A stretch of 64,000 bases of DNA from Mobula hypostoma (lineage: Eukaryota), in contig NC_086107.1 of the NCBI RefSeq assembly GCF_963921235.1, positions 100,690,001-100,754,000 on the forward strand, given 5' to 3'. A program made the position numbers and the translations under genes. The notes beneath the pieces are model-generated. The model saw only the letters and a list, made by a program, of their open reading frames with translations, had not been told where the DNA came from and did no database searches. This document shows positions 1,114 to 61,551 of this stretch, piece after piece. Position 1 is the first letter of the stretch; each line of letters begins with the position of its first letter.

Positions 1114-4100
1114 CCTTGAGAGATGTTTGGGACTGGATCAATAGCAGAAAACTGAATATATTGTAGATAAAGATTGTTCACTGCTGAATAGCATGTTTGA
1201 ATTGTACCCTTTCCTATAGTACTGTAATTATTGTTAAATGTTGTAAAAAAACCTGCTTTGAAATAGTTGAGACAAGACAAGCCCAGGAGCATGCTGGGAA
1301 GAAGGTGCATTTCTTGAAGGGATCATTGAGTTTAACGTTGATCTACCAGGGATCACTAATGCCAAATATGAACGCCAATGCTGGACCACCTTCTGCTAAA
1401 ACATAATTGTTTCCACGGGTATGCATCATTTTGTAAGTTGGTAATGCTAAATGTAAAAAAAAAACACACCTCCAATTCTGGAATAGAAGAAAACACTGGA
1501 AACATTTAACAGGTTATTCACCAACTAAAGAACAAAGTAAGAGGGTGCTGTGATGAAAGGTCACAGCTAAAGTGCCAAACCCACCTTTTGTTTCAGTTGA
1601 TGAGCAACCTGTTGTGGACTTGCAGTGTTTTGTATTTTATTTCATTATTTTATAGCACTGAAAATGCAGCTTCTCAATGGTTCCTGCTCATTCCTTGTGA
1701 TAAACGGCCTTCAAATGGGCTCTGTTCAGTTGTCTTGTGGACTTGTCCTCTGGTAAAGTGCCCATTGTGAAGGCATTTAGCTGAGGAACATAATATTCTG
1801 TGGAATTACTATTATCCATGACTGATTTTACTACTTCAAAATAATTCTAAAACCTGATTTGAGCAAGCTGAATCCTGTATAATTGCGTCTGTCTATCTTG
1901 CATTTACTTGTGAATCCTTGCCTCCTCCGGTCCTGTGCAACCTAACTAGAATGAAAACAGCAAATGATGGAAATTCTCAGCAGGTCAGGCAACATCTGTG
2001 GAGAGAGGAGCAGAGTTATCCATTTCAGATTGATGATCTTCTGTCAGAATTTGACTGGTACCTGGTTCTGAAGTGTCTCAACAGTGAATATCATATTTGA
2101 TCTAATCAAATCTTTAGCAGTTTGCAAATATGCACTTCTCAGCTGGATCATTGGGTGGTGGTCAGGAGAGAGACTGTTGACCTTTTAGAGTATTCCATAC
2201 TGCCTTTTGTGCCTATATAGCTCTCCGAAAGTGCTATCCAATCATTCTGATTCCCTTGTCCTTTTTCATTGTCCATATCTTACCCTATCAAATTTTACTT
2301 TTCAAGCAGTAAATACAGATCTTCAATCTGCTGAATTAAAAAAATTACTTTTAATACCTTGCCAACTATTTTCTGTCTGCATTTACTAGTTGATGTTTCT
2401 TATGCTACTAGTAATGTATTTTAATTTCACCAATAAAATTCAACTCTTCTGATCCAAGGACAATTCAAAATTCTCAAGTTTTTCCATATGCTAAAGTACC
2501 ACATTCAGGCTCCTATTCTATTAAATCTCTCTTCTAAAGTTTTTCTCCCCCTTCAACTGAGGGCCTTGTCATCACCCTTGTTTTTTAAAAATTTCTGTGT
2601 GAACATTATAGCACATTAAAGAAGTGGCATTATATATTGTATTTTCAGAATATCTTAGTAGCTCCAGTAATAAATAACCCATTTCACTAATTGGTGTTGT
2701 GTGCAGGACTAGGAGGTTCAGTGGGTTAAATGCTGCTGTGACAACATTCAGTATTTTATAAATTTATGATATTTCTCAATTTAAAGTAGCTATATATTTG
2801 CTGTGATGCTCTGTATTGGAAGGAAAGTAATAATATTTCCTATTTACTGTACAGTGTTCTTTCCTCCAAACTTTACTTTAGTAAGGTCAATATGTCTGAA
2901 ACTTTTGTACAGCCTCTGTAGCCTATAAACAACTATATAAAAGTCATTAACCTTCAGCATGGAATTCATCCCATGTTGAAAAAGCTACACGCATTGAGAG
3001 ATTGATACATTCAAAGCTCATGATTTTGTCCTTTGTAATAATTTAAAACATCAAAAATTGTGTTAAACAGGCTCTGAACTATTTCAGTGATTAGTACCAT
3101 TTGTAACAGTACTTAGTTATTTAATTTGTTTGCAAGCAACATGATTGTCCCACTGTAAAGCTTGGTAGTTTCCCAGTATTTCCCTAACGGTTATATTACT
3201 TTAAAACCATTAATTGTTTCCCAACCCAATGGAGGGAGTTGTGCTTGGATAAGATCAGTGAAACAGACCACAAAAGACCACCAGGGTCAAATGTTAACTG
3301 AAGAATTGTTGGCTGAACCACTATCACTATTTTCTACCATATCTTCAGTTAATTCACATTTTAATGAGTGATTTAAAAAAAATTCTCCTTGTAAGCCAAA
3401 TTTTTCATTTTCTCCCTCAATGCAACCAGATAGATGAATGCATGTGACTGCATGAGTCTCCCTATATGAAAATGCTTGTGCTACAAGTTGATTAGTATAA
3501 TCACTTGCTTCCTGGGAAACATTTTAAGGGATTAAATGCCATTCTCAATTTGAAGGTCTTTAATATTACTGTAAAAGATGAAACTTTAATTCTAGAAATG
3601 TGGGAATACATCTGGCCTGAACTTGCTTAGGCTCACCTGTGAGAAGCTGGGTATTTGTTGCGTCAAATCCATTTCAATAATAGTTAGTTGGATGAAAATA
3701 CGAACCTATCCAGTTTTTCCCTCAGTAGGTATTTCCTGTAACTGAAGTGGCATGATTTGAAAAGCACTTTTGTGTGTGTGAAACAACTTGTTTTACTTCC
3801 TTTGTAGGTAATTTTATTTTCACAGATTCAACTTGGATGTAAATTCAATTATGCTTTGCTGAGCTTTGAAGTATTTTTGGTCAATTAGTTTGGAGGGATG
3901 TAGAAATAAACAGGGGATGTTCATCCCCTGCTGTGCTACTTAATTATATTGTGACAGATCAGCATCTTAGGTTCCATCTGCATGCCGTGGTTCAGTAACC
4001 ATTAGTACTCTTACATAATAAAGGTATGTCAATTTCAGTTCTGAAACTTATAATTAATATGTTTTGTGGGAATGAGGGAGAGGCAGGAAGTTTCAGATTC

Positions 4101-5827
4101 CTGTTTTATTTTTTGTAAAGAAGTATTTTATGACAGTCCTAACTCTTATTTTTAAAGCTGGGCCACCCCCCCCCCCCCACCTTACATATTCTAGTCGCTA
4201 CTCTTACAACTTCCTTTTCTGCTTTCAGTGAAGTGCAATGTGTCCTCTGTAAGCACAGTCAGGAGATGGAGCAAGAGGTGACCCTTGATATCTAATTGTC
4301 CACAGATGAAGTAGCGCTTTCAAACTCTTCATGAAAAGTGCCGTACATTTACTCTGCTGTGCGGTAACACCATCTACAAGCAACAAATCCACAATTCAAA
4401 TTACTTGCATGCATTATTTTGAAGGCTTTTAACTTTCAGAGTACAAAGGAACTCCATACCCCAGAAGTTGCATTGCTGAGGAGGTACCAGTGTCCTATTT
4501 CCCTTCTGTACATATCAAGGCTAAATAATCTTTTGGCTTATTTATTGTAGCACGTGCATCTTTTACATCCAACAATTGTACCTTTAATAAGTGATGAGGT
4601 GTGTGAGACTAAATGTAATAGCAGTTAATTTGCAATACCTGGAACTTGCAGCGTAGAAGAATCCAAACAGCGGAGGGCACCAGATAAAGGGCTCCCCATA
4701 ACTCAACACGTCCAGATATTGAAAGTTCAGAATGTGGCCTGTCATCAAATTAATGAAATAAATTGGAGTGGAACATTCAGTAATGAAGAACAACTTTGAA
4801 AATAAAAGATAATCATCATTTAACCCACTGATAAGAAATGGGATCTGAGTGGGTGTTCTAGTGTTCTGTTCTATTGGAGTTTACTTGCAAATACTCTTCA
4901 CATTTCGGATCAGAATTTAGGGCTCAGCTCAAATAAAAACCTCTTTGTCTGGCTAGCTAAAATCAGACAACAGGGAAAGGAGAAATGTTGATTGATACTA
5001 TCAGGCTAAATCAATAGAAGAGATTTTTCGGATGGTATGTTTTGAAGCTGAGTAGGGAGATAATACCCCATATCCAATCTGGGAATTGTAACCTGCTGCT
5101 GGGTGATAAAAACCTACTTCTCTGCTCAAAAAAAAAACCACACTGAAATAAAACTAAATATGTAGCTTTCTATCACCAGTCCTCACTATGCATATCTCCC
5201 CCAGAAGAAACCACATGATAACAGTGAGATTTGCTGAACTGATTTTATCTTTTGTAGACATATAATTTGATTGGTCATATTGGTTTGTTTTCTGATACCA
5301 CCATTGAATTGTAAGATCTGTTTATATCCAGAACAATTATCTAGTACAGTCCTCCTAATAAGTTGGGCATTTCTCTTTTAAAGGTTTATATATGTGTGTT
5401 TATTGTATCTTTTTTTTTTAAAAAAGCAAAGATTTAGAATATTTGTTGTTTTTACTTTGAGCTTTTATAAAAAGTTCTTCCCGGTCTTTCTTGATTTGCA
5501 CACAGTAAACTGTAGCTGTACTGTATGCTATATAAATAGATCATGAGTTTTTGTATTCTTCAGTCTGTTTCTCGTTCTTTCAGTAAATTGTACCCATTGT
5601 TGATATTATTAGTAATGGAAACATAGGAAACACGGGTATAATAATACAGTGACTATTGGAAAGTTGATCTATCCAAAGTAACCAATTACACATTTATTAA
5701 TGCTTGAATGGTAAATAATATCAGTGATCATTTAAACGATGTCAGTCACAATTACACTGAAAACTATGTACATCAGCCACTAGATATAAGGCAGAGATTA
5801 ATGGGAAAGAAGACCTGAGTTCTTATC

Positions 5828-5925
5828 AACACACACAAAATGCTGGAGGAAATCAGTAGGCCAGGGAGCATCTGTGGAAAACAGTAAACCGTCAACATTT
5901 TGGGCCAAGACCCTTCATCAGGACT
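5828..5925 (-). mobile_element. Half copy of the hammerhead-bearing fold-back repeat
   Basis: Minus strand reads agtcCTGATGAagggtcttggcccaaaatgttgac, followed by the family arm (..atgctccctggcctactgatttcctccagcattttgtgtgtgtt). Confidence 0.75.
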
Positions 5926-30601: not shown

Positions 30602-30945
30602 CTCTCTTTAAGTACTTCATGTTTACCTGAGTATTACATCTTCTGAGGTTGCAGTTTATTTCTGTGCTTTGTAATATAACGGTGGTACTCGGGCAGTCCC
30701 AGGGCGCCAAGAGTGATTAACTTTGTTTGGTTCTGAGGTGGCTGAAGAATCCATAGACTCCATCACAAGTGAGCATTAAGTGTCAGTAAAGTAATAAGTT
30801 GCACAAGAGCTCATATATTCACCTGACTGAGACTCTCATTTTTTAGTGTTTTACTGCAAGTTCTTTCTCCCATTTTTAATTGGTTGAGAGCCAGGAATTT
30901 CCATGAATTGATGAAATGTTTGCTGTATCCTCCTGATCATCATTG

Positions 30946-31150
30946 GGGGGTGGTATGGTAGCGTAGTTGTTAGCTCGTTGCTCTACGACGATCAACAATG
31001 GGGTTTCAGTTCCTACTGCCATTTCCAAAGGAGTTTGTATGTGCTCTCTGTGACTGCGCAGGTTTCCTCCAGGAGTTTGTTTCCTTCCACATTCCAAAGG
31101 CGTACGGTTAAGGTTGGTGAGTTGTGGGCATACTCTGTTGGCGCCAGAGG
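30946..31150 (+). mobile_element. tRNA-derived V-SINE-like element
   Basis: ggtggtatggtagcgtagttgttagc A-box; V-domain ggtttcctccaggagtttgtttccttccacattccaaaggcgt. Confidence 0.7.
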
Positions 31151-31155
31151 TTCAC

Positions 31156-32130
31156 TATATATTAATGACTTGGATGAGGGAATTAAATGCAGCATCTCCA
31201 AGTTTGCGGATGACACGAAGCTGGGTGGCAGTGTTAGCAGTGAGGAGGATGCTAAGAGGATGCAGGGTGACTTGGATAGGTTGGGTGAGTGGGCAAACTC
31301 ATGGCAGATGCAATTTAATGTGGATAAATGTGAAGTTATCCACTTTGGTGGCAAAAATAGGAAAACAGATTATTATCTGAATGGTGGCCGATTAGGAAAA
31401 GGGGAGGTGCAACGAGACCTGGGTGTCATTATACACCAGTCATTGAAAGTGGGCATGCAGGTACAGCAGGCGGTGAAAAAGGCGAATGGTATGCTGGCAT
31501 TTATAGCGAGAGGATTCGAGTACAGGAGCAGGGAGGTACTACTGCAATTGTGCAAGGCCTTGGTGAGACCACACCTGGAGTATTGTGTGCAGTTTTGGTC
31601 CCCTAATCTGAGGAAAGACATCTTTGCCATAGAGGGAGTACAAAGAAGGTTCACCAGATTGATTCCTGGGATGGCAGGACTTTCATATGAAGAAAGACTG
31701 GATGAACTGGGCTTGTACTCGTTGGAATTTAGAAGATTGAGGGGGGATCTGATTGAAACGTATAAGATCCTAAAGGGATTGGACAGGCTAGATGCAGGAA
31801 GACTGTTCCCGATGTTGGGGAAGTCCAGAACGAGGGGTCACAGTTTGAGGATAGAGGGGAAGCCTTTTAGGACCGAGATTAGGAAAAACTTCTTCACACA
31901 GAGAGTGGTGAATCTGTGGAATTCTCTGCCACAGCAAACTGTTGAGGCCAGTTCATTGGCTATGTTTAAGAGGGAGTTAGATATGGCCCTTGTGGCTACA
32001 GGGGTCAGGGGGTATGGAGGGAAGGCTGGGGCAGGGTTCTGAGTTGGATGATCAGCCATGATCATAATAAATGGCTCGAAGGGCTGAATGGCCTACTCCT
32101 GCACCTATTTTCTATGTTTCTATGTTTCTA
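31156..32130 (+). mobile_element. Young 5'-truncated CR1 LINE (RT C-terminal part, open frame)
   Basis: Nearly identical to 55826-56802; YINDLDEG..FADDTKLGG..; (ttctatgt)n tail. Confidence 0.95.
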
Positions 32131-34809: not shown

Positions 34810-34966
34810 TTTCTTACCTGGCAGGGGAGAGTCCATGATCATTAAGGTGGTTCTCCCAGGATGAGGCTATCCCATCGCACTTCGGGTGTGCTGGCACTTG
34901 TGATGTCCCAAAATGCGGGATGCTCGACTGCAAAATTTGTGGTAGTGGGGGACTGCGTTCATGCTT
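34810..34966 (+). pseudogene. RNU1: U1 snRNA retrocopy / pseudogene (slightly 3'-truncated)
   Basis: cttacctggcaggggaga..ccatgatca..aaggtggtt.tcccagg..gaggct..cca.cgcact.cgg.tgtgctg...ctcgactgca.aatttgtggtagtgggggactgcgttc is colinear with U1 and keeps the Sm site AATTTGTG. The U1-70K and U1A loops are mutated and the final ~8 nt are missing. Confidence 0.92.
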
Positions 34967-35082
34967 AAATTTATTTGTGACATCGATAGGATGCAGAACT
35001 GGGCTGAGAAGTGGCACATGGACTTCAACCCAGATGAGTGTGAAGTGGTTAATTTCGGTAGGTCAAATTTGAAGACAATATA

Positions 35083-37615
35083 CAAGTTTCCCCCGCCATC
35101 CGAAGGTAGAGCGTTTGAATGAAACGGTTTGTAAGCCAAAATGTCGTAAAGTGAAGAAGCAATTACCATTTATTAATATGGGAAAAATTTTTGAGCGTTT
35201 CCAGACCCAAAAAATAACCTACCAAATCATGCCAAATAACACATAAAACCTAAAATAACAGTAACATATAGTAAAAGCAGGAATGATATGATAAATACAC
35301 AGCCTAAATACTTCTTGCAATCATTAAAGTACTGTCTAGCGCAGCGAAAATCTCACGCATGCGCTCTCGGCAGAAGCACTCTCTCCAGTAACCTTTAAGC
35401 TATGAGGCTGACAAATCATACTAAACAACACAAAAATACACAGCCCATATAAAGTAGAATAATGTATGTACATTAATGTATAATATTTAATATACATTAA
35501 TGTATAATGTACATAATGTATGTACAGTGTAGTTTCACTTACGGGAATCGGGATGGTGTGTTAGGCTGAGTCGTCGGAAATTGGGGTGGTGGGAGGTAGA
35601 AGAGACTGGGGTGTCATCTCATCGTTGTCTATTTCCAATAGGGCAGCCAGGTCATCTTCTATGTCTGCCTGCCTCGATGTCGAAGGTCGAGGTTCGTCGT
35701 CTGCTGTGGCTGATGTGCAAGGCTTGAAAAATGACAGTATATTTGATTGCTGAGCCTCGCGCATTTTTAGATCATAGAGTTCTTTGTAAGCACTCAAAAC
35801 ATCCTGCAAAGCTGCCCTAAACCTACGTGCCCTTTCAAAATTAAAGTCATACTTTTCTGCAATCATTGCAGCGCTGTCAATCACAGCGGAAATCTCACGC
35901 AACTGCTTCACGCTCAGTCCCTGGACGACTTCATTTTCGGTACTGCGTTCGGTTTCAATTGTTCTCCTTTCCTCTTGCAATTGCATCAGCTCTTCATCTG
36001 TCAATTCTTGGTCATGGGATGCCAAAACCTCCTCAACATCATCTTCGTCAACTTCCACAAACCCAGCCTCCTTAACCAAGCTCACTATTGTCGTATTCAT
36101 TGTTGATGGTTCGAAACCTTTAAAATCATTCACTGCTTTGGGACATAGTTTCCTCCAAACGCCATTTCTCATCGAGACTGTTAGCCTATCGAGAGCATCC
36201 CCAATGTTGGCGATTGCCAGTTTTATATTGTAGTCTTTCCAGATCTCTCACAAAGATGCTTCGGAGTTGCCCTCTCTGTCAATAGCACTTACAATAAAAC
36301 GCATCACATTTTGCGTATAGTAAGCCTTAATTGTGGCTATTAGGCCTTGGTCGCACGGCTGCAGCAACGATGTCGTATTTGGCGGTAAGAACACAACACA
36401 AATGTTACTGCCATACTCGGTAATGTCAGGCGGATGAGCAGCACAATTATCGACAATCACAAGACACCTATTATTGAGGTTATTTTCTCTGCAGTATTTT
36501 TCGACAAAAGAACTAATGTATCTGCTCATGTACTCAGAAAAAAGCACTTGGGTGTTCCAGCTGCTTGAACGTGAACGGAACACAATGGGAAGTGTTTTCT
36601 TATCAACGCCTTTAAGTGCCCTTGGATTTTCTGAATGGTACACTAGTAGAGGCTTAGTGGCGTTAATAACAGGCATTAGGGTAAACCTGTCCTTCGATGC
36701 CTTGTGTCCCTTAGCCTGCTTTTCTTCTTTCGAAATAAATGTCTTACTCAGCAATTTTTTCCAATAAATTGCAGTTTCATCACATTTAAACACTTGCTTA
36801 TACAAATAACCACCTTCTGTAATTATTTTCTTCAGTTCTGCTGGGAACCTTTCAGCAGCTTCAATATCAGCCGAAGCACTCTCTCCAGTAAGCGTTAAAC
36901 TATGAAGCTGCCCTCGCCTCAGAAACTGATCAAACCACCCGTGACTACCTTTAAATTCCACTTTCGCAATACTTCCATCACCATCGGCCGGTGCTTTCTG
37001 TTTCAGTTTATTAAAAAGACTGACTGATTTCTCCTTAAGTATAAGATAACTTAAAGGAACACCACATTTTATACACCCATCAATCCACTCAAGCAATAGA
37101 CTTTCCATTTTATCCATTACTGGATGCTGACTAAGAGAGACCACTTTGCTACGAGCAGAACCAACAATAACATCGGCAGCTTTCAAGATTTTTTTCTCTC
37201 TGCGTAGAAATAGTGCGAATGGTGGATGCAGGCAAGTTCAACGCACGGACAATGTCCTTACTTCGTTCACCACGATCGAAATGCTTAATTATATCTAGCT
37301 TTACGCTAAGTGTAACACCCTTACGAGCTCTTTTAGGCTTTTCCGATATCTTCGAACTCATCTTGCTAACGGATGCACAAAATAAATCGAGGTAAAGCAC
37401 ATGTTTAAGCAATGGCGGCTAGAATGCAGTTCCAGGGCAGGAGCTTGGCTGCTCGGGGCGCGCGCTGCTTTTTTTTCGCACGCCGCCATTTTTTGTGCGC
37501 TGCTTTTCTCGTAACAGTGAAAAAACCTTCTCTTAGCAAAAGCAGGGTACTAATGTAGGTCTTTCATAACAGTCAGGTTTCGTAAAGCAAACGTTCGAAA
37601 AGTGGGGGACACCTG
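35083..37615 (-). mobile_element. Tigger/pogo-family DNA transposon, full length
   Basis: TA on both sides (35081-82, 37616-17); imperfect TIRs caagtttcccccgccatccgaaggt / caggtgtcccccacttttcgaacgt; internal transposase. Confidence 0.92.
35561..37361 (-). pseudogene. Tigger/pogo transposase (HTH-psq, CENP-B HTH, DDD domain), disrupted
   Basis: KRARKGVTLSVKLDIIKHF..LPASTIRTI; FKGSHGWF; CDETAIYWK, VDNCAAHP and LPPNTTSLLQPCDQG catalytic motifs; one frameshift near 37190 and one in-frame TGA at 36248-36250. Confidence 0.9.
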
Positions 37616-47856: not shown

Positions 47857-49493
47857 GAGACATGTACTATGTTTGAGGTTTTATCAATATAAGTTATTTT
47901 TTTAACCAAGTTGTACGATTGGACATTTAATTTCTCTGTAAAGGTTAGTTACAGGCAAATTTGAAGGAGCATCTTTGCCAATGAAAGGAGTTTGGAGAAA
48001 AGTAATCTTAAAATCATTCCTTAGTTGCAATAATTCTGAGAGCTGCCTTGCGCTTTAGTAAATTTAAGTGGTGATTTGAACCTTGCTTAGTTTTTATTTG
48101 AAAGTTCAAAGGTTCATTTATTATCAAAGCAAACAACTCTGAAATCCTTCTTCTCCAGATAGCCTCGAAACCAAGAAATAAAAGAACGACAGCACGATAA
48201 TCAATCTCCTCTCCCCCCTTACAGAAACAGCAAAACATCAACCCCCAAATCCCCCTCCCATGCACACAAAAACAAAAAGGAATGGGCGAAAATACAGAAT
48301 ATTAGGAACTATAAGACTGAAAGAAAGTCCATAGTCCGTATTCCAAATCCATGTCCATATCTAAAATGCTGAAACAGCAGCAGGCCACAAAGGCTCATCT
48401 TTCCAACAGCAGAGCAATACTACCAGTGATCAGAGGGCAGGCAGCTGGTGCTCACCTTCTGCATTCGCCTCGATGTTTCCATCTCCTTCGTTGCTTTAAT
48501 CAGCCAACAATGGAAGCTTTAATTGGCGAAATGGAGTTAAACCTCAGCTCATGCCCCTTCCTGCAGCCCCCCCACCACAAAACTTGCACTTGCTGCCTCC
48601 TGAAATTCTCTCGGAGACAGCAAAGTGCTGGATCACCCATGCGATCTCCAAACTGCATATCACAGGTTCCAACAGTTAAGTCCGCGAAAGCAATCTTGCT
48701 TTGCTGCTGCTATTGCAGAGAAATTGAAACATCTTCTAAGTTCACTGTTGATGATTTTGTTAAATTATACCTGTAAACCCCCAAGAATTATCTTTGTTAT
48801 TTCATTTTGTTGTGACTTCATTATCGTGAAAAGGAGTGTTTAGCTTTTAGCTGATGGTGTGTTTCTGAGCAGAGCATGCCTAAGAGGATCCTTCAGACAT
48901 GGAATTACTAACATTTTTGTGATAAGGGACAGGTTGGTGTGGCTGCTATTCAATTTGATAACAGTCAGACTTTGCCATGTATATCAGCTGGTTGAGTTCT
49001 ATTTTGGCTTAATTGGTGATTAAAATTACATTTATGTAGGCTTTGCGTGATTGTACCTTCAACAGGGAGGCTCCTGCTTGTGGTTCTCAGCGGAAGGCTA
49101 AGTTTCAGTTGATTTGGAGGCAGCTGATGGTGCCTGTTCCTGACTGCAAAGTCCTGTCCATGTCGACTGAGAAATATTGCCCCAGAATCATTCACCTTGG
49201 AACCAGTGCTGGTTTTGATAGAATTTTATACAGAAGGAAATCTGTGTCCTTTGCTGAATTTTACTTTTGCAAAGGGCATCCTGATTTTGGTTAGCTATGG
49301 ATGTCCCTGCAACTGTTATTCGGCAATTCCTTTAGATCAGTGATGAAGTGGATGCCAGTTTTCTAGGTTGTGGAATGACTGACAGACCAATGTGGGAATC
49401 TCGGACTGCCTCAGAATTTGGGCAGAGAGCAATAATAGACTTATAACATGGCTTGGGTGAAAGAGGAATAGTAAATCGTAAGTAGTAAAACTC

Positions 49494-49722
49494 AAACACA
49501 AGGAATTCTGCAGATGCTGGAAATTCAAGCAACACACATCAAAGTTGCTGGTGAACGCAGCAGGCCAGGCAGCATCTCTAGGAAGAGATACGTGTTTCCT
49601 CTTACTAGCTCTTCCTTCAGTTAGTCCTGATGAAGGGTCTCGGCCCAAAATGTCGACTGTACCTCTTCCTAGAGATGCTGCCAGGCCTGCTGCATTCACC
49701 AGCAACTTCGATGTGTGTTGCT
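49494..49722. mobile_element. Hammerhead-bearing fold-back repeat
   Basis: Near-perfect inverted arms; core agtcCTGATGAagggtctcggcccaAAAtGTCgact at 49623-49658; flanked by taaaactca repeats. Confidence 0.85.
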
Positions 49723-49784
49723 AATAAAACTCATCTTCCTTTTGTGTATGAGATAGGATGGAAAGGAGGAAAGTATTTTTCATG

Positions 49785-50024
49785 CAACACACATCAAAGT
49801 TGCTGGTGAACACAGCAGGCCAGGCAGCATCTATAGGAAGAGGCGCAGTCGATGTTTCAGGCCGAGACCCTTCGTCAGGACTAACTGAAGGATGAAGGGT
49901 CTCGGCCCAAAATGTCGACTGTACCTCTTCCTATAGATGCTGCCTGGCCTGCTGTGTTCACCAGCAACTTTGATGTGTGTTGCTTGAATTTCCAGCATCT
50001 GCAGAATTCCTGTTGTTTGCGTTT
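49785..50024. mobile_element. Hammerhead-bearing fold-back repeat with 14-bp TSD
   Basis: Near-perfect inverted arms; minus-strand core at 49847-49882; aagtatttttcatg duplicated at 49771-49784 and 50025-50038. Confidence 0.88.
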
Positions 50025-50199
50025 AAGTATTTTTCATGTCTTTGATTATTATTAAATTCCATATTGAAATTATTCAGTATAATATTTCTTGTGTATGTAT
50101 GGACATTGTGCCTCACAATTTCAGAGCAATTGGGATGCACAATAAACCAGTGACGTCCAAATGAATAATATGTGTGTATTTAGTTTTAACATTTCACTC

Positions 50200-50942
50200 A
50201 TGATTGTGTGGCTAGGCATAGCTCAAACACCTTCAATAACTTTGCAATAACACAAACATTGTTGGTAAAATCTGAGGGTGATGAGATGTACAGGTCTATC
50301 CTGGGACCAACTTATTGAAGGATTTCCAAAGAAGACACAACAGCAGCTGGAGTCTGAGGAGATTTGATTTTTCGCAAAAGGCCCTAACAGGTTTCTGTAG
50401 ATGTACAGCAGAAAGCATTCTGATTGTTTGCATCACTACCAATATGGAGGCTGCAATGCACAGGATTCAAAAAAAACTTAGAGGGGTGTAGCCAGTTCCA
50501 TCATGGGCACTAGTCTCCCCACCATCGAGGATGTCTTCAGAAGATGGTGCCTCATGAAGGCGTCAGCTATCATTAAGGACCCTCACCATCCAGGACATGC
50601 CCTCTTCTCATTACTGTCATCAGGGATGAGATAGAGCAGGGGTTCCCAATCTTTTTTTATACTATGACATACCGTTAACCAAGGGGTCCGTGGACCCAGG
50701 TTGAGAACCCCAGAGATAGAGAAACTTGAAGACATCAACTCAATGCTTTAAGGATAGCTTTATTACCTCCACTAACAGATTTCTGAATGGTCCATCAACC
50801 TATGAACGCTACCTTGTTACTTTTTCCTTTTTTTGCACTTTTAAAAATATATTTCTTACTGGTATTTTTAAAATGTATATCTCTATACTGCAGCTGAAAA
50901 ACAAGTTTCATGACGTGTCCTGATAATAAACCTGATTCTGAT
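50200..50942 (+). mobile_element. Decayed Rex1/L2-type LINE 3' end
   Basis: Homologous to 39000-39835; tail taataaacctgattctgat. Confidence 0.75.
50637..50713. mobile_element. 77-bp hAT-type MITE
   Basis: Imperfect TIRs caggggttcccaa / ttgagaaccccag and an 8-bp duplication agatagag (50629-50636 / 50714-50721). Confidence 0.8.
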
Positions 50943-51176: not shown

Positions 51177-53715
51177 GTTGGTCCTGTGATTTGTCTTTAA
51201 CTTAAATTCAATTTGTGTTAAGAGCATTTTAATGTGAAATTAATTTTCAGGCATATCATATGACTAGATGATATTAATAATTTCTAGAACTTCACAAACA
51301 AGATAAAGTATGTTTTTAAACCTTATTTAAAAAGCCTTTGATGCTAAAAATAATTTGCGCAATGAATTGCATTAATTTTTGTCTAAGTTCATATCTTTAA
51401 ATTTATTAAATGAGGTTTAACTCAATATCTTGTCAGCAGCATTTATTAACAGAAGGAAAAGCCTTCTGTCAGCAAGGGGTCTCAGAATATCATCAGTGCG
51501 CTCTTCGGTCAGGGCCTTAGTTTCTAACTCCTGTGCTGCTTGCCTGTTGCTCTGCCTCATGGGACAGCCACAACAGTAAGGCTAGCAGGATGTTGGGCGC
51601 CTCAGTCACAAAAGGCAAATGCTCCCATTGACATCCTGAGAGCCGCAGGCCTGTCCCAGTGCAATTCTGCACAAAGTTGTTAATATAGGAGAGCTTACTG
51701 AGTAGAGCACAGTCCAGTATTTAAATTCACACCCACGGCAACAAAGATTAATACAGGTTGAGTAGCCCTTCTCCAAAATTCCAAAAGTAGTCAGGACTTG
51801 AAGTGAGAATGGTAGAATTGAAAAGAGCCTTTTAGACATGGCGTGACATGAGCTCAACCCCATGTCATGCTCCTCCTGTGCAATGTGGGAACTCAGGGAG
51901 GCTGCCAGGATGTGTAGAAACTATGTACTGCTACAGCTTCTTGTAGACAGTACGATGGACCAAGAGCAGTGAGAAAAAGAGCAATTGGGAAAGCCTTAAA
52001 AAATCAGCAACCTCGGTATTTACTAACAACCAAAGATCTTTTTTTCATTTATTCCGTGGTACTAGGCAGGGTTGCCCTCTTAGTCCATTACTATTTGATA
52101 TTGCCTTGGAACCGCTAGCTATTGCCATTCGTGACTCTCCTAATATATTTGGTATTACCCGTGGAAATGAGACTCATAAATTATCACTATATGCAGATGA
52201 TCTACTATTATATATTTCTAACCCAGGAAAATCTATTCCGGCAGTATTAACTTTGCTTGCTCAGTTTAGTAGTTTTTCTGGTTATAAACTGAACCTAAGT
52301 AAGGATGAACTCTTTCCATTGAATATGCAGGTTCCTATTTATACAAATTCTCCATTTAGACTAATTACTGATTATTTTACTTATTTGGGAGTTAAAATTA
52401 CTAAGAGACATAAGGATCTCTTCAATTTCAACCTTTTACCATTAATTAATCAGGTTAAACAACTGATTACTAAATGGTCCCCTTTGTCGCTATCATTGAT
52501 AGGCTGTATTAATGCTTTTAAAATGATTATTTTACCCAAATTTTATATTTATTTCAAGCGATACCGATTTTTTATTCCTAAATCTTTTTTTGATACTATT
52601 GACTCTAACATTTCTTCTTATATATGGCAAAATAGAAATCCCAGATTAAGTAAAAAATACTTACAGAAATCTAAGAAAGAGGATGGTTTGGCATTGCCTG
52701 TCCTAAGATTTTACTGCTGGGCAATTAATATCTGATACATAATATTTTGGACACAAGATTGGAATATAACTCCAAGCGCACATTGGGTAAACCTTGAAGG
52801 CCATTCTGTACAAGGGTTTTCTTTAGCCTCCATTTTAGGAACCTCACTGCCTTTTGCACTATCTAAAGTGAATAAACAAATTTTTATCCCTATAGTTAAA
52901 CATACATTGTGAATATGGTTTCAATTTCGTAAATTTTTTGGCTTGAATGAATTTATGTTATCAAGTCCTATTATATCTAATTTCTTTTTCCAACCCTCGG
53001 TAATGGACCAAGCCTTTTTGATATGGAAAACGAAAGGCATAATATGTTTTCGTGATCTATTTTTGGATAACTGCTTTATGTCTTTTGAGCAGTTAACTGA
53101 GAAATTTGATTTGCCTAGATCCCATTTTTTTTAGATACTTACAAATAAGAAATTTTTAAAATACTTTGTTGCCTACCTTTCTGACTTCAAATCCTTCTGG
53201 CATTTTTGATAAAATTTTAGGTTTTAATCCTTTGCAGAAGGGATTAATAGCAATAATTTATGATATAATTATGAAATTACAGCCAGATATATCTGATAAA
53301 ATTAAAAATGAATGAGAAAGGGAACTTCAACTTTCCCTGCCTACAGAGAAATGGGATAAAATTTTTCAATTAGTTAGTACTTCTTCTGTATGTGCTAAAC
53401 ATACTTTAATACAATTTAAAGTAGTACACAGAGCTCATATGTTCAAAGATAAACTAGCTCGTTTTTATTCCCATATAAACCCTACTTGTGATAGATGTCA
53501 CTCTGAAGTGGCTTCTTTAACTCATATGTTTTGGTCCTGTCCTCTTTTGGAAAAATATTGGAAAGACATTTTTGATATTATTTCAACAGTTCTATGCTTT
53601 GATTTAAAACCCCATCCTATTACAGCAATCTTTGGATTGCCAATGGTAGAACATAGATCTTTATCTTCTTCAGCCTCTGGAATGATAGCTTTTGTTACTT
53701 TAATGGTGAGAAGAT

Positions 53716-56700
53716 GGGAATCAAATTAAAGCGGCTAGGTGTGAGGAGGTTAGTTCACAACAGAGGGATGGGAACCAGTGGAGAGAGACAGAGGGGTGTA
53801 AAGTGAGCGTAGAAGCAAAAAGTACAAAGGGGAAAAGTAAAAGTGGCAGGCCGACAAATCCAGGGCAAGCATTAAAAAGGGCTAAGAGAGTTGTAAAAGA
53901 GCGCCTGAAGGCTTTATGTGTCAATGCAAGGAGCATTCGTAATAAGGTGGATGAATTGAAAGTGCAGATTGTTATTAATGATTATGATATAGTTGGGATC
54001 ACAGAGACATGGCTCCAGGGTGACCAGGGATGGGAGCTCAACGTTCAGGGATATTCAATATTCAGGAGGGATAGACATGAAGGAAGGGGAGGTGGGGTGG
54101 CGTTGCTGGTTAAAAAAGAGATTAACGCAATAGAAAGGAAGGACATAAGCCGGGAAGATGTGGAATCGATATGGGTAGAGCTGCGTAACACTAAGGGGCA
54201 GAAGACGCTGGTGGGAGTTGTGTACAGGCCACCTAACAGTAGTAGTGAGGTCGGAGATGGTATTAAACAGGAAATTAGAAATGTGTGCAATAAAGGAACA
54301 GCAGTTATAATGGGTGACTTCAATCTACATGTAGACTGGGTGAACCAAATTGGTAAAGGTGCTGAGGAAGAGGATTTCTTGGAATGTATGCGGGATGGTT
54401 TTTTGAACCAACATGTCGAGGAACCGACTAGAGAGCAGGCTATTCTGGACTGGGTTTTGAGCAATGAGGAAGGGTTAATTAGCGATCTTGTCGTGAGAGG
54501 CCCCTTGGGTAAGAGTGACCATAATATGGTGGAATTCTTCATTAACATGGAGAGTGACGTAGTTAATTCAGAAACAAAGGTTCTGAACTTAAAGAGGGGT
54601 AACTTTGAAGGTATGAGACGTGAATTAGCTAAGATAGACTGGCAAATGACACTTCAAGGATTGACGGTGGATATGCAATGGCAGGCATTTAAAGGTTGCA
54701 TGGATGAACTACAACAATTGTTCATCCCAGTTTGGCAAAAGAATAAATCAAGGAAGGTAGTGCACCCGTGGCTGACAAGAGAAATTAGGGATAGTATCAA
54801 TTCCAAAGAAGTAGCATACAAATTAGCCAGAGAAAGTGGCTCACCTGAGGACTGGGAGAAATTCAGAGTTCAGCAGAGGAGGACAAAGGGCTTAATTAGG
54901 AAGGGGAAAAAAGATTATGAGAGAAAACTGGCAGAGAACATAAAAACGGACTGTAAAAGCTTTTATAGATATGTAAAAAGGAAAAGACTGATAAAGACAA
55001 ATGTAGGTCCCCTGCAAACAGAAACAGGTGAATTGATTATGGGGAGCAAGGACATGGCAGACCAATTGAATAATTACTTTGGTTCTGTCTTCACTAAGGA
55101 GGACATAAATAATCTTCCAGAAATAGTAAGGGACAGAGGGTCCAGTGAGATGGAGGAACTGAGCGAAATACATGTTAGTAGGGAAGTGGTGTTAGGTAAA
55201 TTGAAGGGATTGAAGGCAGATAAATCCCCAGGGCCAGATGGTCTGCATCCCAGAGTGCTTAAGGAAGTGGCCCAAGAAATAGTGGATGCATTAGTGATAA
55301 TTTTTCAAAACTCGTTAGATTCTGGACTAGTTCCTGAGGATTGGAGGGTGGCTAATGTAACCCCACTTTTTAAAAAAGGAGGGAGAGAGAAACCGGGGAA
55401 TTATAGGCCGGTTAGCCTAACGTCGGTGGTGGGGAAACTGCTGGAGTCAGTTATCAAGGATGTGATAACAGCACATTTGGAAAGCGGTGAAATGATCGGA
55501 CAAAGTCAGCATGGATTTGTGAAAGGAAAATCATGTCTGACGAATCTCATAGAATTTTTTGAGGATGTAACTAGTAGAGTGGATAGGGGAGAACCAGTGG
55601 ATGTGGTATATTTGGATTTTCAAAAGGCTTTTGACAAGGTCCCACACAGGAGATTAGTGTGCAAACTTAAAGCACACGGTATTGGGGGTAAGGTATTGGT
55701 GTGGGTGGAGAATTGGTTAGCAGACAGGAAGCAAAGAGTGGGAATAAACGGGACCTTTTCAGAATGGCAGGCGGTGACTAGTGGGGTACCGCAAGGCTCA
55801 GTGCTGGGACCCCAGTTGTTTACAATATATATTAATGACTTGGATGAGGGAATTAAATGCAGCATCTCCAAGTTTGCGGATGACACAAAGCTGGGTGGCA
55901 GTGTTAGCAGTGAGGAGGATGCTAAGAGGATGCAGGGTGACTTGGATAGGTTGGGTGAGTGGGCAAACTCATGGCAGATGCAATTTAATGTGGATAAATG
56001 TGAAGTTATCCACTTTGGTGGCAAAAATAGGAAAACAGATTATTATCTGAATGGTGGCCGATTAGGAAAAGGGGAGGTGCAACGAGACCTGGGTGTCATT
56101 ATACACCAGTCATTGAATGTGGGCATGCAGGTACAGCAGGCGGTGAAAAAGGCGAACGGTATGCTGGCATTTATAGCGAGAGGATTCGAGTACAGGAGCA
56201 GGGAGGTACTACTGCAGTTGTACAAGGCCTTGGTGAGACCACACCTGGAGTATTGTGTGCAGTTTTGGTCCCCTAATCTGAGGAAAGACATCTTTGCCAT
56301 AGAGGGAGTACAAAGAAGGTTCACCAGATTGATTCCTGGGATGGCAGGTCTTTCATATGAAGAAAGACTGGATGAACTGGGCTTGTACTCGTTGGAATTT
56401 AGAAGATTGAGGGGGGATCTGATTGAAACGTATAAGATCCTAAAGGGATTGGACAGGCTAGATGCGGGAAGATTGTTCCCGATGTTGGGGAGGTCTAGAA
56501 CGAGGGGTCACAGTTTGAGGATAGAGGGGAAACCTTTTAGGACCGAGGTTAGGAAAAACTTCTTCACACAGAGAGTGGTGAATCTGTGGAATTCTCTGCC
56601 ACAGCAAACTGTTGAGGCCAGTTCATTAGCTATGTTTAAAAGGAAGTTAGATATGGCCCTTGTGGCTACAGGGGTCAGGGGGTATGGAGGGAAGGCTGGG

Positions 56701-56802
56701 TTCTGAGTTGGATGATCAGCCATGATCATAATAAATGGCGGTGCAGGCTCGAAGGGTCGAATGGCCTACTCCTGCACCTATTTTCTATGTTTCTATGTTT
56801 CT
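53716..56802 (+). mobile_element. Young CR1 LINE, 5'-truncated just upstream of ORF2
   Basis: Flanked by aagat (53711-53715 / 56803-56807); (ttctatgt)n tail. Confidence 0.95.
53803..56706 (+). CDS. CR1 ORF2: APE endonuclease + reverse transcriptase (967 codons, uninterrupted)
   Basis: EN motifs CVNARS, GITETW, GDFN, SDH; RT motifs PGPDG, NYRPVSL, YLDFQKAFD, GVPQGSVLGP, FADD. The true start codon is uncertain (the track opens at GTG). Confidence 0.93.
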   Translation: MSVEAKSTKGKSKSGRPTNPGQALKRAKRVVKERLKALCVNARSIRNKVDELKVQIVINDYDIVGITETWLQGDQGWELNVQGYSIFRRDRHEGRGGGVALLVKKEINAIERKDISREDVESIWVELRNTKGQKTLVGVVYRPPNSSSEVGDGIKQEIRNVCNKGTAVIMGDFNLHVDWVNQIGKGAEEEDFLECMRDGFLNQHVEEPTREQAILDWVLSNEEGLISDLVVRGPLGKSDHNMVEFFINMESDVVNSETKVLNLKRGNFEGMRRELAKIDWQMTLQGLTVDMQWQAFKGCMDELQQLFIPVWQKNKSRKVVHPWLTREIRDSINSKEVAYKLARESGSPEDWEKFRVQQRRTKGLIRKGKKDYERKLAENIKTDCKSFYRYVKRKRLIKTNVGPLQTETGELIMGSKDMADQLNNYFGSVFTKEDINNLPEIVRDRGSSEMEELSEIHVSREVVLGKLKGLKADKSPGPDGLHPRVLKEVAQEIVDALVIIFQNSLDSGLVPEDWRVANVTPLFKKGGREKPGNYRPVSLTSVVGKLLESVIKDVITAHLESGEMIGQSQHGFVKGKSCLTNLIEFFEDVTSRVDRGEPVDVVYLDFQKAFDKVPHRRLVCKLKAHGIGGKVLVWVENWLADRKQRVGINGTFSEWQAVTSGVPQGSVLGPQLFTIYINDLDEGIKCSISKFADDTKLGGSVSSEEDAKRMQGDLDRLGEWANSWQMQFNVDKCEVIHFGGKNRKTDYYLNGGRLGKGEVQRDLGVIIHQSLNVGMQVQQAVKKANGMLAFIARGFEYRSREVLLQLYKALVRPHLEYCVQFWSPNLRKDIFAIEGVQRRFTRLIPGMAGLSYEERLDELGLYSLEFRRLRGDLIETYKILKGLDRLDAGRLFPMLGRSRTRGHSLRIEGKPFRTEVRKNFFTQRVVNLWNSLPQQTVEASSLAMFKRKLDMALVATGVRGYGGKAGF

Positions 56803-59393: not shown

Positions 59394-61551
59394 TAAAAAA
59401 TACTTTACTTTCAAAATTTTCAAAAAAAAACAATGGAATCAACAAGAACATACCAGCTCAGACATGTATAAAAATGAAATAAGCAAAAAAAAAGAGGAGA
59501 CTTAAAGAAGAGACTTAACATTAGAGGGATGCCTATTGTACAAAGTGCTCAAAAATACTAAACAGTAAATCTCAAATGAGGGCCGTGAGAAATCGGCTGG
59601 GGGGAAATGGCTCATCTGCCCCCGGCCTTGTCCAGGTAGGCAAGAAATGAATCCCAGATAGTCGAAAGTTTTTTAATTAAATTGGTTCTCAAGAACCTCA
59701 GTTTCTCCATCTGTATGACTGAGATCATATCAGTCATCCATCTCCAAAAGGAAGGGGGAGAAGGTGATTTCCATTCCCTCGCGATGCCTTTTGGCAACAA
59801 TCATCCCCAGCATTAGAGACTGTTGTATGGCTGCAGGGAAACAAATAGTAGATTGCGAGCAGCCAAATATGGCGAGACCAGATTCCAAGGGGAAGGATCT
59901 TTTATAGGCCTTTGAGTACCAGTCAAATATTTTGGACCAAAATCGAGTCAGTAATGGGCAAAACCAAAAGGTGTGTGACAACGTGGCTTCCCTCCCTTGG
60001 TATCTGTCACACATTGGCGAGACAGAAGGGTAAATCCTGTGCAATCTAAGTTTAGAATAATGGAGACGGTGGACAACTTTAAACTGGGTCAGTTGGTGCC
60101 TGCTGTTAACAGAGCAAGCCTGTATCATAGACAAACACTTATCGCAGGCAGCTTCAGATAATTCAGTGCCCAACTCCTCTCTCCAGGCGTCTCTAATCTT
60201 CACAGTAGACGCTACAGTGCAATTATCAAACAAACGTACAAACTTAGAAACGAGACGCCTGGAGTCAGGAGGGTTCTTTAAAATATCAAAAAACATATGT
60301 TTCCCTGGAGGGATTTCAAAATTGCACATCTTAGATTGAATGTAGTGTCTAATTCGTAAGTAACGAAAAAAGTGCGAATGAGGCAGCTCAAATTTCTCTT
60401 TCAGCAGACTGAATGTTGCAAACTGTCCCTCTATGTACAGGTCTTCAGTAGAAATTAGACCCTTCTCCCTCCAAGCATGGTAGGTTTTATCTGACCATGA
60501 GTGTAGAAAGGAGTGATTGAAACAGATTGGTGTTTGTACAGAGGTCTCTGGTAAATTCTGAACGCTCCTAATCTGATTTAGAATTCTGATAGAATTTTTC
60601 AAAACAAAGCTCAAACTTTTTGAAGTCCCAGGCTTCTCTAACTTAGAGAACAGCATGGCTGGCAAGGAGGAATTGACAACAGATTTAGACTCCATACATA
60701 GCCACAAGGGAGCCCCAGGGTCTAGGTTATCCAGAGCCCCTGTTGCCAAAACATTAAAGTTCTAGCATTGACAGCCCAGTAATAGTGTTTAAACACAGGT
60801 AATCCCAGCCCTCCTTCAGACTTGGGCTTTTGTAAATGAATTTTCAAAATCCTGTGATTCTTATAATTCCAGATATAAGACAATATTATGGAGTCTAATT
60901 CTTTAAAGAAAGCTAATGTAAGAAAAGTGAGGAGATTTTGAGAAAGATAGAGAAACCTAGGAAGGGAAACGGTTTTAATTGAGTTTGTACGACCAATCAT
61001 GGACAGAGGTAGGGTTTTCCAACTTTCTATGTTCTGTTTAAGTTTTGAAATAAACTCTGCGAAGTTTAATTTGAATATTAATTTAGGATCTTTGGTGATT
61101 GTCAAGCTAAGATAAGTAAAGTGATCTTTAACTACTTTGAATGGGACACTTTCCAAAATAACCCGCGTGTAGTCGTTGGAGAGCGGCACAAAGTCACTTT
61201 TTGTCCAATTGATTGAGTATCCCGATAGTCTGCCAAAAGCGGTGATTAAATCTAGAAGAGGGACTGACTTTTCTGAGTTTTGTAAGTAGAGTATCACATC
61301 GTCAGCATATAAACTAATAAGTGTTTCAATACCTCCCACTTTCAAACCCAGAATATTTGGGTGACTTCTCATTTTTAAGGCTCTGCTGCGATGACAAAAG
61401 GGCCGGTGAGAGAGGGCACCCCTGCTGGACTGAACGGTGTAGGGGAAACAAAGTTGACTTGTCACCATTAGTTATAATAGAACACATTGGGCTGGCGTAT
61501 ATCAGTTTTACCCAAGATACAAATGACTCCCCGAACCCAAACCTGTACGTC
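59394..61551 (-). mobile_element. 5'-truncated L1-type LINE (frameshifted ORF2)
   Basis: ISLYADDVILYL, GGLGLPVFKHYYWA, CDR..HTFWFC; flanked by agtttcagt(t/c)ttt repeats (59381 / 61552). Confidence 0.88.

Follow-up and report, generated by a model that had tools for sequence, protein, structure and literature searches.

The window analysed here, the whole 64-kb stretch of Mobula hypostoma DNA taken from a 3.48-Gb genome in 200 contigs, contains two small adjacent fold-backs, E1 (49495-49721) and E2 (49785-50024), which carry hammerhead-like motifs. They are very probably independent insertions of different age, each an extreme, 5'-truncated twin stub of a very abundant and recently active Penelope-like element (PLE). 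In a twin stub, two complementary DNAs (cDNAs), each copied from the 3'-terminal ~100-150 nt of the element RNA, would lie head to head between a target-site duplication of ~12-14 bp. An earlier reading of the sequence (hereafter the original prediction) had proposed a non-autonomous, ribozyme-bearing retroelement family that inserts as an inverted unit. Our analysis supports a retroelement of the Penelope kind with a minimal type-I hammerhead motif, in which a palindromic ACGU replaces stem III, and identifies E1 and E2 as dead-on-arrival twin stubs, not a new fold-back ribozyme element. Their pattern has already been described for PLEs, and the finding is real but ordinary.

Structure of E1 and E2 and their parent element

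E1 and E2 have opposite orientations and are separated by 63 bp, or 49 bp without the E2 duplication, in a window with a G+C content of 33-48%. E1 lies between 12-bp direct repeats with one mismatch: the left copy TAGTAAAACTCA (49483-49494) and the right copy TAATAAAACTCA (49722-49733, repeat family D5) agree at 11 of 12 positions and can be written jointly as TA(G/A)TAAAACTCA. E2 lies between exact 14-bp repeats, AAGTATTTTTCATG at both 49771-49784 and 50025-50038 (family D3). These target-site duplications had been described originally for both elements and are confirmed.

The inverted arm of E1 (49495-49591, minus strand) is a 5'-truncated PLE 3' end without the hammerhead core, and within it a tail extension (49495-49528) has the same sequence as positions 1497-1530 of L045, a genomic PLE locus described below. 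The direct arm (49592-49721, plus strand) consists of ~30 nt of PLE 3'-untranslated region (3' UTR) leader that matches L045 5060-5093, the motif at 49623-49658, and the unit down to its short end ...GATGTGTGTTGC; it is 88-91% identical to units found beside GIY-YIG open reading frames (ORFs). In E2, the short-end arm (49785-49890, unit on the minus strand) contains leader and motif (49847-49882), and the tailed arm (49891-50024, unit on the plus strand) begins with GATGAAGGG, inside the CUGA box, has GAAAC changed to AAAAU, and terminates in a 41-nt tail (49984-50024). The ends of both elements are asymmetric, one stopping at ...GATGTGTGTTGC and the other extending 34 nt (E1) or 41 nt (E2) further through TTGAATTTCCAGCATCTGCAGAATTCC... 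One decayed CpG is common to both E2 arms (CTGTGTTC / GAACACAG).

Both fold-backs had been described as near-perfect hairpins, and this holds for E2, apart from its asymmetric ends. Its 98-nt arms (49779-49876 and 49891-49988, family I3) are 92% complementary with a spacing of 14 nt, and the RNA folds into a ~95-bp hairpin at -178.9 kcal/mol (z = -24.7), a value reached by none of 200 shuffles. The E1 arms (49528-49591 and 49659-49722, family I4) are 94% complementary over only 64 nt with a spacing of 67 nt, and E1 is therefore merely a partial hairpin.

Sites without the insertions, which the original prediction had suggested looking for, are indicated in two related organisms. In a contig of organism B, position 49785 is joined to 50048 with 5 nt between them, E2 and one copy of its duplication being gone to within 3 nt; the contig set of this organism includes E1 without E2. 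In a contig of organism C, 49485 is joined to 50046 with 63 nt between them, where the loss of both elements predicts 67 nt. With E2 missing in B and both missing in C, E1 is the older of the two elements and each is a true insertion. Contigs of a further run (X10, possibly RNA) cover the repeat and not the unique flanks, and low-coverage DNA would look identical.

The arms lead to an autonomous element. A genome search based on E2 returned 1,835 first-look candidates, and all 40 scored places match on both strands; a GIY-YIG profile search returned 27,350 first-look candidates, of which 149 of the 150 scored had E <= 0.01. Among 12 fetched GIY-YIG loci, six contain the arm at 88-94% identity; PLEs with this endonuclease that share the arm, which the original prediction had suggested looking for, thus exist. 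In L045, an open frame of 871 residues (2179-4791) carries a GIY-YIG domain at residues 774-849 (23.6 bits, cut-off 22.6), and by eye it presents ADKGG, YIDD, a CX4CX2C linker and GVIY...LYIG. A "DKG motif" has been named for PLEs in the accessible text of PMC8557442. The CX4CX2C string in the linker between reverse transcriptase (RT) and endonuclease (EN) hints at an element of the Neptune or Nematis type. About 300 bp past the stop codon of L045 lie the leader CCTTCAGTTAGTC, an intact motif and a short end at 5189. Upstream of the ORF lies an inverted 5'-truncated copy, which has its tail at its beginning (1497) and continues back across the motif and the 3' UTR; the whole structure is bounded by AA(A/T)GAGGTCG. 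L045 thus has the architecture of E1 and E2 with longer arms. A second locus, L046, has an ORF (2490-4844) with a GIY-YIG domain (23.5 bits, cut-off 22.6), and the hammerhead unit follows ~300 bp downstream. With the motif ~95 nt from the element end, the E1 and E2 arms correspond, from sequence comparison, to the last ~100-150 nt of an autonomous PLE.

We also considered an element with an N-terminal EN (Naiad-like), and rejected it since both L045 and L046 place the unit downstream of the ORF. It had first been suggested by L043 and L044, which are rearranged or tandem fragments with the unit upstream of the GIY-YIG domain. L043 (G000:C130:558000-567999) is a tandem array of rearranged PLE pieces with a 4.9-kb period, each period holding two GIY-YIG segments and one hammerhead unit. 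In L044 (G000:C18:109592000-109601999), one copy joins the hammerhead unit directly to the final third of the ORF, and this copy adjoins a proline/asparagine-rich low-complexity repeat.

The family is very large. The intact 33-nt motif CTGAYGAAGGGTCTCGGCCYGAAACGTCGACTG, inferred by reverting CpG-type changes, has 24,400 + 24,462 = 48,862 exact copies in the genome, and a reversed control has 0 + 0. Because all three CpGs are intact in each of these copies, much of the family must be young. The family is a highly abundant, recently active PLE whose ORF joins an RT to a C-terminal GIY-YIG domain.

Origin of the fold-backs

We aligned 30 genomic fold-backs with E1. Their outer ends are constant and the hairpin centre varies from copy to copy: the cut in either arm falls at varying positions within the CUGA box or shortly upstream of it, and in some copies a few additional bases are present. 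The two arms of a copy agree at four subfamily markers in 30/30, 27/29, 30/30 and 24/29 copies, where 19.3, 14.5, 13.3 and 12.2 would be expected for independent arms, and five of the seven disagreements fall at the CpG marker. A fold-back master could not have gained each change twice, which indicates that the arms come from one template or from sister templates; the variable centres likewise speak against any such master. Moreover, each pair has exactly one tail of ~41 nt. Varying centres, shared arm markers and a single tail together imply that the fold-back is made anew at each insertion. Insertion as a ready inverted unit, as originally proposed, is not supported, given centres that vary and markers that are complementary in both arms.

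All 30 aligned copies have a target-site duplication, which is exact and 12-19 bp long in 28 (median 14 bp) and 14-15 bp with one mismatch in the other two. In a swapped-flank control, 27 of 30 gave nothing of 6 bp or more, and the maximum was 7 bp. The long duplications of the original prediction are thereby supported.

For a sample independent of shape, we took the first 30 motif matches on contig C1, which represent 28 insertions. Seven of these are mini fold-backs, two are head-to-head pairs with unequal arms (1170 + 257 bp and 100 + 443 bp), six are singles with the short end, nine are singles with the tail, and four have a tail and, upstream, an inverted fragment from another part of the element. 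The last four are L053, L054, L071 and L072; breakpoints are identical in L054 and L072. By end, the non-paired copies comprise six short and 13 tailed ones (including the four rearranged). There are two alternative 3' ends ~41 nt apart: singles use both, and each pair has one of each. The one-tail rule holds in 9/9 pairs ordered by position and 30/30 picked by similarity, as well as in E1, E2 and L045.

These data bear on two explanations that we consider extremely improbable. The first is that the fold-backs are miniature inverted-repeat transposable elements (MITEs) or foldback DNA transposons, with terminal inverted repeats and moved by a cut-and-paste transposase, as their small size and overall hairpin shape might suggest. 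Long duplications that vary from 12 to 19 bp exclude a MITE; furthermore, the ends are not mutual inverted repeats, one being longer by 34-41 nt, truncation at the outer end varies, the arms equal a PLE 3' end, and single-arm copies with the same ends are common (15/28). The second is that ordinary single truncated copies were inserted and became palindromes only later, through a local inverted duplication or an assembly artefact. Palindromes are in general prone to rearrangement and misassembly, and the tailed arm of E2 is a conversion-like mosaic with E1 (see below); however, the target duplication brackets the whole pair and not a single arm, and all nine shape-independent pairs obey the one-tail rule. 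Contigs of run X4, which may be the source sample, span the left junction of E1 and the stretch from the right of E1 to the left of E2 with 0 differences, and the presence or absence of whole pairs among organisms fits single insertion events.

More serious, and in our view still unlikely, is a distinct, self-propagating non-autonomous family, similar to short interspersed elements (SINEs) or retrozymes, in which a short RNA beginning shortly before the hammerhead would be inserted as an inverted unit by PLE protein supplied in trans. This corresponds to the original prediction. The sampled arms have their 5' ends 0-50 nt upstream of the CUGA box in 11/28 insertions, the rest being spread over more than 1.5 kb, and such a cluster would fit a short transcript that begins at one set position. 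Of the sample, 11/28 are likewise mini forms (seven fold-backs and four short singles), and animal retrozymes have been argued, in the accessible text of bioRxiv 10.64898/2026.07.22.740005, to be non-autonomous PLE derivatives. Against this, the minis have no private diagnostic states: marker combinations recur among mini, single and long ORF-bearing copies, and the minis are therefore no separate lineage. Arm lengths pass gradually into copies that measure from 250 to over 1500 bp, the variable centres leave no place for a fold-back master, and copies are inverted rather than tandem, hence not retrozyme-like here. The arms being the 3' end of an autonomous PLE (88-94%), the separate non-autonomous family that had been predicted is not supported, nor is a fold-back master of its own.

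Several points nevertheless weigh against reading E1 and E2 as twin stubs of an active PLE. The 30 aligned fold-backs were picked by similarity to E2 and are biased to such a shape, a bias that affects copy length and not the tests on hairpin centres or arm markers, and the 28-insertion sample is small and lies entirely within the first 2 Mb of one contig. The empty sites were read from contig coordinates alone. In the parent elements, the RVT_1 matches are under the Pfam cut-off of 29.6 bits, both in L045 (residues 410-524, 20.8 bits) and in L046 (24.3 bits), PDB and NCBIfam searches with the L045 ORF gave no match, and this ORF was called Penelope-like from profile matches and motifs seen by eye. 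The original prediction had proposed scoring with Rfam, but the 11 matches that 49300-50200 gave at E <= 10 include no hammerhead family, and none reached gathering score in the window, where U1 was the sole match; we assume that the models expect a stem III, which minimal hammerhead ribozymes (min-HHRs) lack. Finally, the cluster of 5' ends beside the motif is not predicted by plain 5' truncation, and could reflect a discrete short template RNA and hence a semi-independent non-autonomous unit. A short transcript of the pseudo-long terminal repeat (pLTR), a block to reverse transcription and preferred pairing are all possibilities.

The last such point concerns E2 itself. Its tailed arm agrees with E1 without a difference over the inner 43 nt (49891-49933 against 49629-49671, repeat family D1), and this stretch includes the GTACC state, N7 = U and both CpG changes. 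Between the N7 position and GTACC, the tailed arm has by eye seven differences from its partner within E2. Over the other ~51 nt that the two arms share, which extend from CCTCTTCC as far as the short end, it is by eye the same as the partner arm and differs from E1 at five sites. The double CpG-type change is rare, being found in 1/100 among the first CCC-form matches. Because the inner part matches E1 and not the partner, this copy requires either a second template or gene conversion at a later time. The mosaic likely results from gene conversion by E1, or from the use of E1 in the repair of the E2 insertion.

We propose the following mechanism for the twin stubs. The endonuclease would make a staggered cut ~14 bp wide, and both freed 3' ends would prime reverse transcription on the element RNA. 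The first cDNA would start at an inner site and end in ...GTGTGTTGC, and the second would start at an outer site ~41 nt further on and thus carry the tail. Short pairing near the hammerhead would then link the two cDNAs, each insertion having its own junction point: the hammerhead stems would make cDNAs of like sense partly complementary to each other. The arms equal to a PLE 3' end, the variable centres, the matching arms, the one-tail rule, the duplications and the empty sites are observations; from them we infer two-strand priming, a single RNA for both arms and pairing-based joining. The data fit the published model of two start sites and two strands for PLEs. A more specific version, which we offer tentatively and think rather doubtful, is a concerted two-strand reaction in vivo, in which a dimeric PLE ribonucleoprotein cuts ~14 bp apart and copies one RNA from two start sites, the cDNAs being joined via the self-complementary hammerhead stems and the region serving as a pairing or stop module. 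Two cDNAs from two start sites of one RNA would always leave exactly one tail, and joining via self-complementary stems would concentrate both the 5' ends and the junctions at the motif. The hammerhead region may then act in insertion rather than, or besides, as a ribozyme.

The hammerhead motif and other features of the window

Both predicted hammerhead-like strings are present. On the minus strand of E2 (49847-49882) we read AGUC-CUGACGA-AGGGUCUCGGCCU-GAAAC-AUC-GACU, and on the plus strand of E1 (49623-49658) AGUC-CUGAUGA-AGGGUCUCGGCCC-AAAAU-GUC-GACU. In the latter, the CUGAUGA box (49627-49633) is intact, two CpG-type changes have turned GAAAC into AAAAU (with G12 now A), as had been noted originally, and the position of the stem III palindrome reads AUGU. 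In the former, CUGACGA and GAAA are intact and the palindrome ACGU has become ACAU. A third copy, on the plus strand of E2 from 49891, is cut within the CUGA box: it begins GATGAAGGG, lacks C3-U4 and reads AAAAU. None of the three therefore keeps the full core and stem III positions, all being mutated or truncated. A 29-nt stretch of the motif has three matches in the window at up to three mismatches, against 0 expected from 100 shuffles.

In the family motif, helix I is UAGUC/GACUG, followed by C3-A9 as CUGAYGA, an unpaired A, and a helix II of GGGU/GCC(C/U) closed by a CUCG loop; GAA, A15.1-C-G-U16.1 and C17 would then precede the predicted cleavage position. The accessible text of PMC4209133 lists four hallmarks of PLE min-HHRs: an extra nucleotide after position 9, a G10.1-C11.1 pair, a palindromic 15.2-16.2 and a short helix I. 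In CUGAYGA-A-GGGU(CUCG)GCCC, one unpaired nucleotide follows A9, and the 10.1-11.1 pair is G-C where the motif has CCC and G-U where it has CCU, the commoner form. GAA-ACGU-C gives the palindromic 15.2-16.2 without a stem III loop, as in the dimer design, and H17 is not G. The CUGANGA box is present in the family motif, in the plus-strand copy of E1 and in the minus-strand copy of E2, and the GAAA box (G12 A13 A14 A15.1) in the family motif and in the minus-strand copy of E2, the plus-strand copies of E1 and E2 reading AAAA. We therefore assign the motif, on sequence features, to the hammerheads of PLE min-HHR type, with all four features listed in that source.

A descriptor search, as proposed originally, gave 11 matches within PLE loci, all with helix I UAGUC/GACUG paired, and no intact copy in the window. 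The minimum-energy fold of a motif monomer retains helices I and II, and two copies cofold into an extended duplex, not a dimeric hammerhead; thermodynamic folding is silent on catalysis. Any ribozyme activity is putative. In E2, a read-through transcript would be expected from the fold to lock the hammerhead in the ~95-bp hairpin. We regard the hammerhead as a passenger of the terminal repeat of the parent element.

A dead-ribozyme subfamily marked by CCCAAAATG, which E1 and E2 have in common, was considered and rejected. Among the first 100 CCC-form matches, 82 are intact, 9 and 8 have one of the two changes each, and one has both, counts that fit independent decay.

Other minimal hammerhead patterns, with fixed boxes and pairing left free, have 1,116 matches in the genome against 95 in the control, and a pattern with a longer helix II has 284 against 74. 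By eye, their helices II are unrelated in sequence yet pair (GAUGGC/GUCAUC, GUCACC/GGUGAC, GUUGCC/GGUAAC and GCCUCUC/GAGUGGC), the last family includes a double change from CUC/GAG to CUU/AAG, and the bulge and G10.1-C11.1 are kept. At least four such further families have the bulged base and the CGAAACGUC end in common with this motif, and some of their motifs form close pairs on opposite strands, as at C1:90375225(-)/90375987(+) and C1:127619219(-)/127619507(+).

A further PLE-related copy in the window, at 5830-5925 on the minus strand, is a single 3' end of a related PLE family, without an inverted partner. It has the same hammerhead motif with CpG-type decay (CTTGG, CCCAAAATGTTGAC), its tail or downstream part has diverged, and it is ~71-75% identical to units in the PLE loci. 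We considered the large RT-bearing ORF of the window as a PLE partner and rejected it, as it belongs to a long interspersed element (LINE) of the APE type (53710-56706, plus strand; 998 residues with AP-endonuclease and RT). RT fragments with weak to moderate RVT_1 matches lie at 30915-32042 (plus), 51947-52735 (plus) and 59730-61471 (minus), and a pogo/Tc5-like DDE_1 transposase frame at 36248-37237 (minus). U1 spliceosomal RNA has a full-length match at 34810-34973 on the plus strand (105.5 bits, gathering score 69.5), which may be a gene or a pseudogene copy.

Several Rfam microRNA (miRNA) precursor models (MIR530, mir-3926, MIR6020 and others) give sub-threshold matches with low E-values on the hairpins of 49300-50200, and sub-threshold small nucleolar RNA (snoRNA) models fit there likewise. 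Such matches on PLE hairpins are likely to cause false miRNA annotations in this genome. For annotation, the tens of thousands of small hairpins and "hammerhead" matches found here are truncated PLE insertions, to be filed neither as a new ribozyme class nor as miRNA-like hairpins or MITEs.

Comparison with known systems

Neither a fixed-length duplication nor matching terminal inverted repeats, the marks of MITEs and foldback elements, was found. The twin-priming inversion of L1 offers a parallel, in that both ends of a staggered break prime cDNA and the 5' part is inverted. The two parts of an L1 inversion, however, derive from successive stretches of the RNA, whereas here both arms copy the same segment, and, unlike in L1 twin priming, they start at two defined sites. 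Non-LTR retrozymes are likewise non-coding, bear a type-I hammerhead and are related to PLEs, according to the accessible part of bioRxiv 10.64898/2026.07.22.740005. Retrozymes are direct tandem repeats thought to yield circular RNAs, whereas the units described here are inverted pairs or singles. A second direct unit copy beside the first was found in 0/28 sampled insertions, and no tandem direct array is present at the E1/E2 locus.

The closest relatives of the motif are the min-HHRs of PLEs (Cervera and De la Pena 2014, PMC4209133). As far as the accessible text of that paper describes them, they occur in PLE terminal repeats, sometimes as dual motifs on opposite strands 100-700 bp apart, and have low activity in vitro. 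Our motif has the same CUGANGA and GAAA boxes, 10.1-11.1 pairing, palindromic ACGU and short helix I (5 bp here), and also occurs as thousands of dispersed motifs and as opposite-strand pairs. It differs from the published min-HHR in its dominant variant, which pairs G10.1 with U11.1 as a wobble where min-HHRs have G-C and can be derived from the CCC form by a CpG-type change, and in its short helix II of 4 bp with a CUCG loop. Exact motif copies number 48,862 here, against ~4,000 in the coelacanth and ~9,000 in Xenopus in the same source.

E1 and E2 agree best with the endonuclease-bearing (EN+) PLEs, that is Penelope/Poseidon, Neptune and Nematis. These have the same single ORF with an RT and then a C-terminal GIY-YIG domain, the same hammerhead in the terminal repeat region, the same heavy 5' truncation and the same adjacent inverted truncated copy. 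L045 carries this inverted 5'-truncated copy beside its 5' end, together with a one-ended tail. PMC8557442 describes PLE insertions as strongly truncated at the 5' end, often beside an inverted copy that is itself 5'-truncated, and with a tail of 30-40 bp that is often one-ended; our tail is likewise one-ended and ~41 nt long. With regard to the partial tandems that form pLTRs in EN+ PLEs, the observation is a 4.9-kb tandem array of rearranged PLE pieces on C130. What sets E1 and E2 apart from EN+ PLEs is that only the two ends of ~100-150 nt are left, as a free-standing hairpin.

For the mechanism, the comparison is with the PLE of the anole, whose protein cleaves and extends both DNA strands in vitro and begins reverse transcription at two adjacent internal sites, with a spacing that equals the tail (PMC11167929). 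The two alternative 3' ends of our family match these two internal start sites. In the anole element, hammerhead cleavage is protein-assisted and dispensable for insertion in vitro (PMC11167929), and the motif overlaps the ORF start, whereas here it lies ~300 bp past the stop codon. Around the start sites, the sense strand is GU-rich here, whereas the anole template is described as AC-rich; the fold of our 3' region with both start sites is no better than that of shuffles (z = -0.69). The two-start-site model was derived in vitro from this single lizard element, and its signals are one tail, arms from the same template and a narrow duplication of 12-16 bp. With 48,862 CpG-intact motifs and insertions that differ between related organisms, the present PLE family is very large and young, and with its size, its youth and the strictness of its one-tail rule it is a useful natural test case for the two-start-site, two-strand model of PLE insertion.

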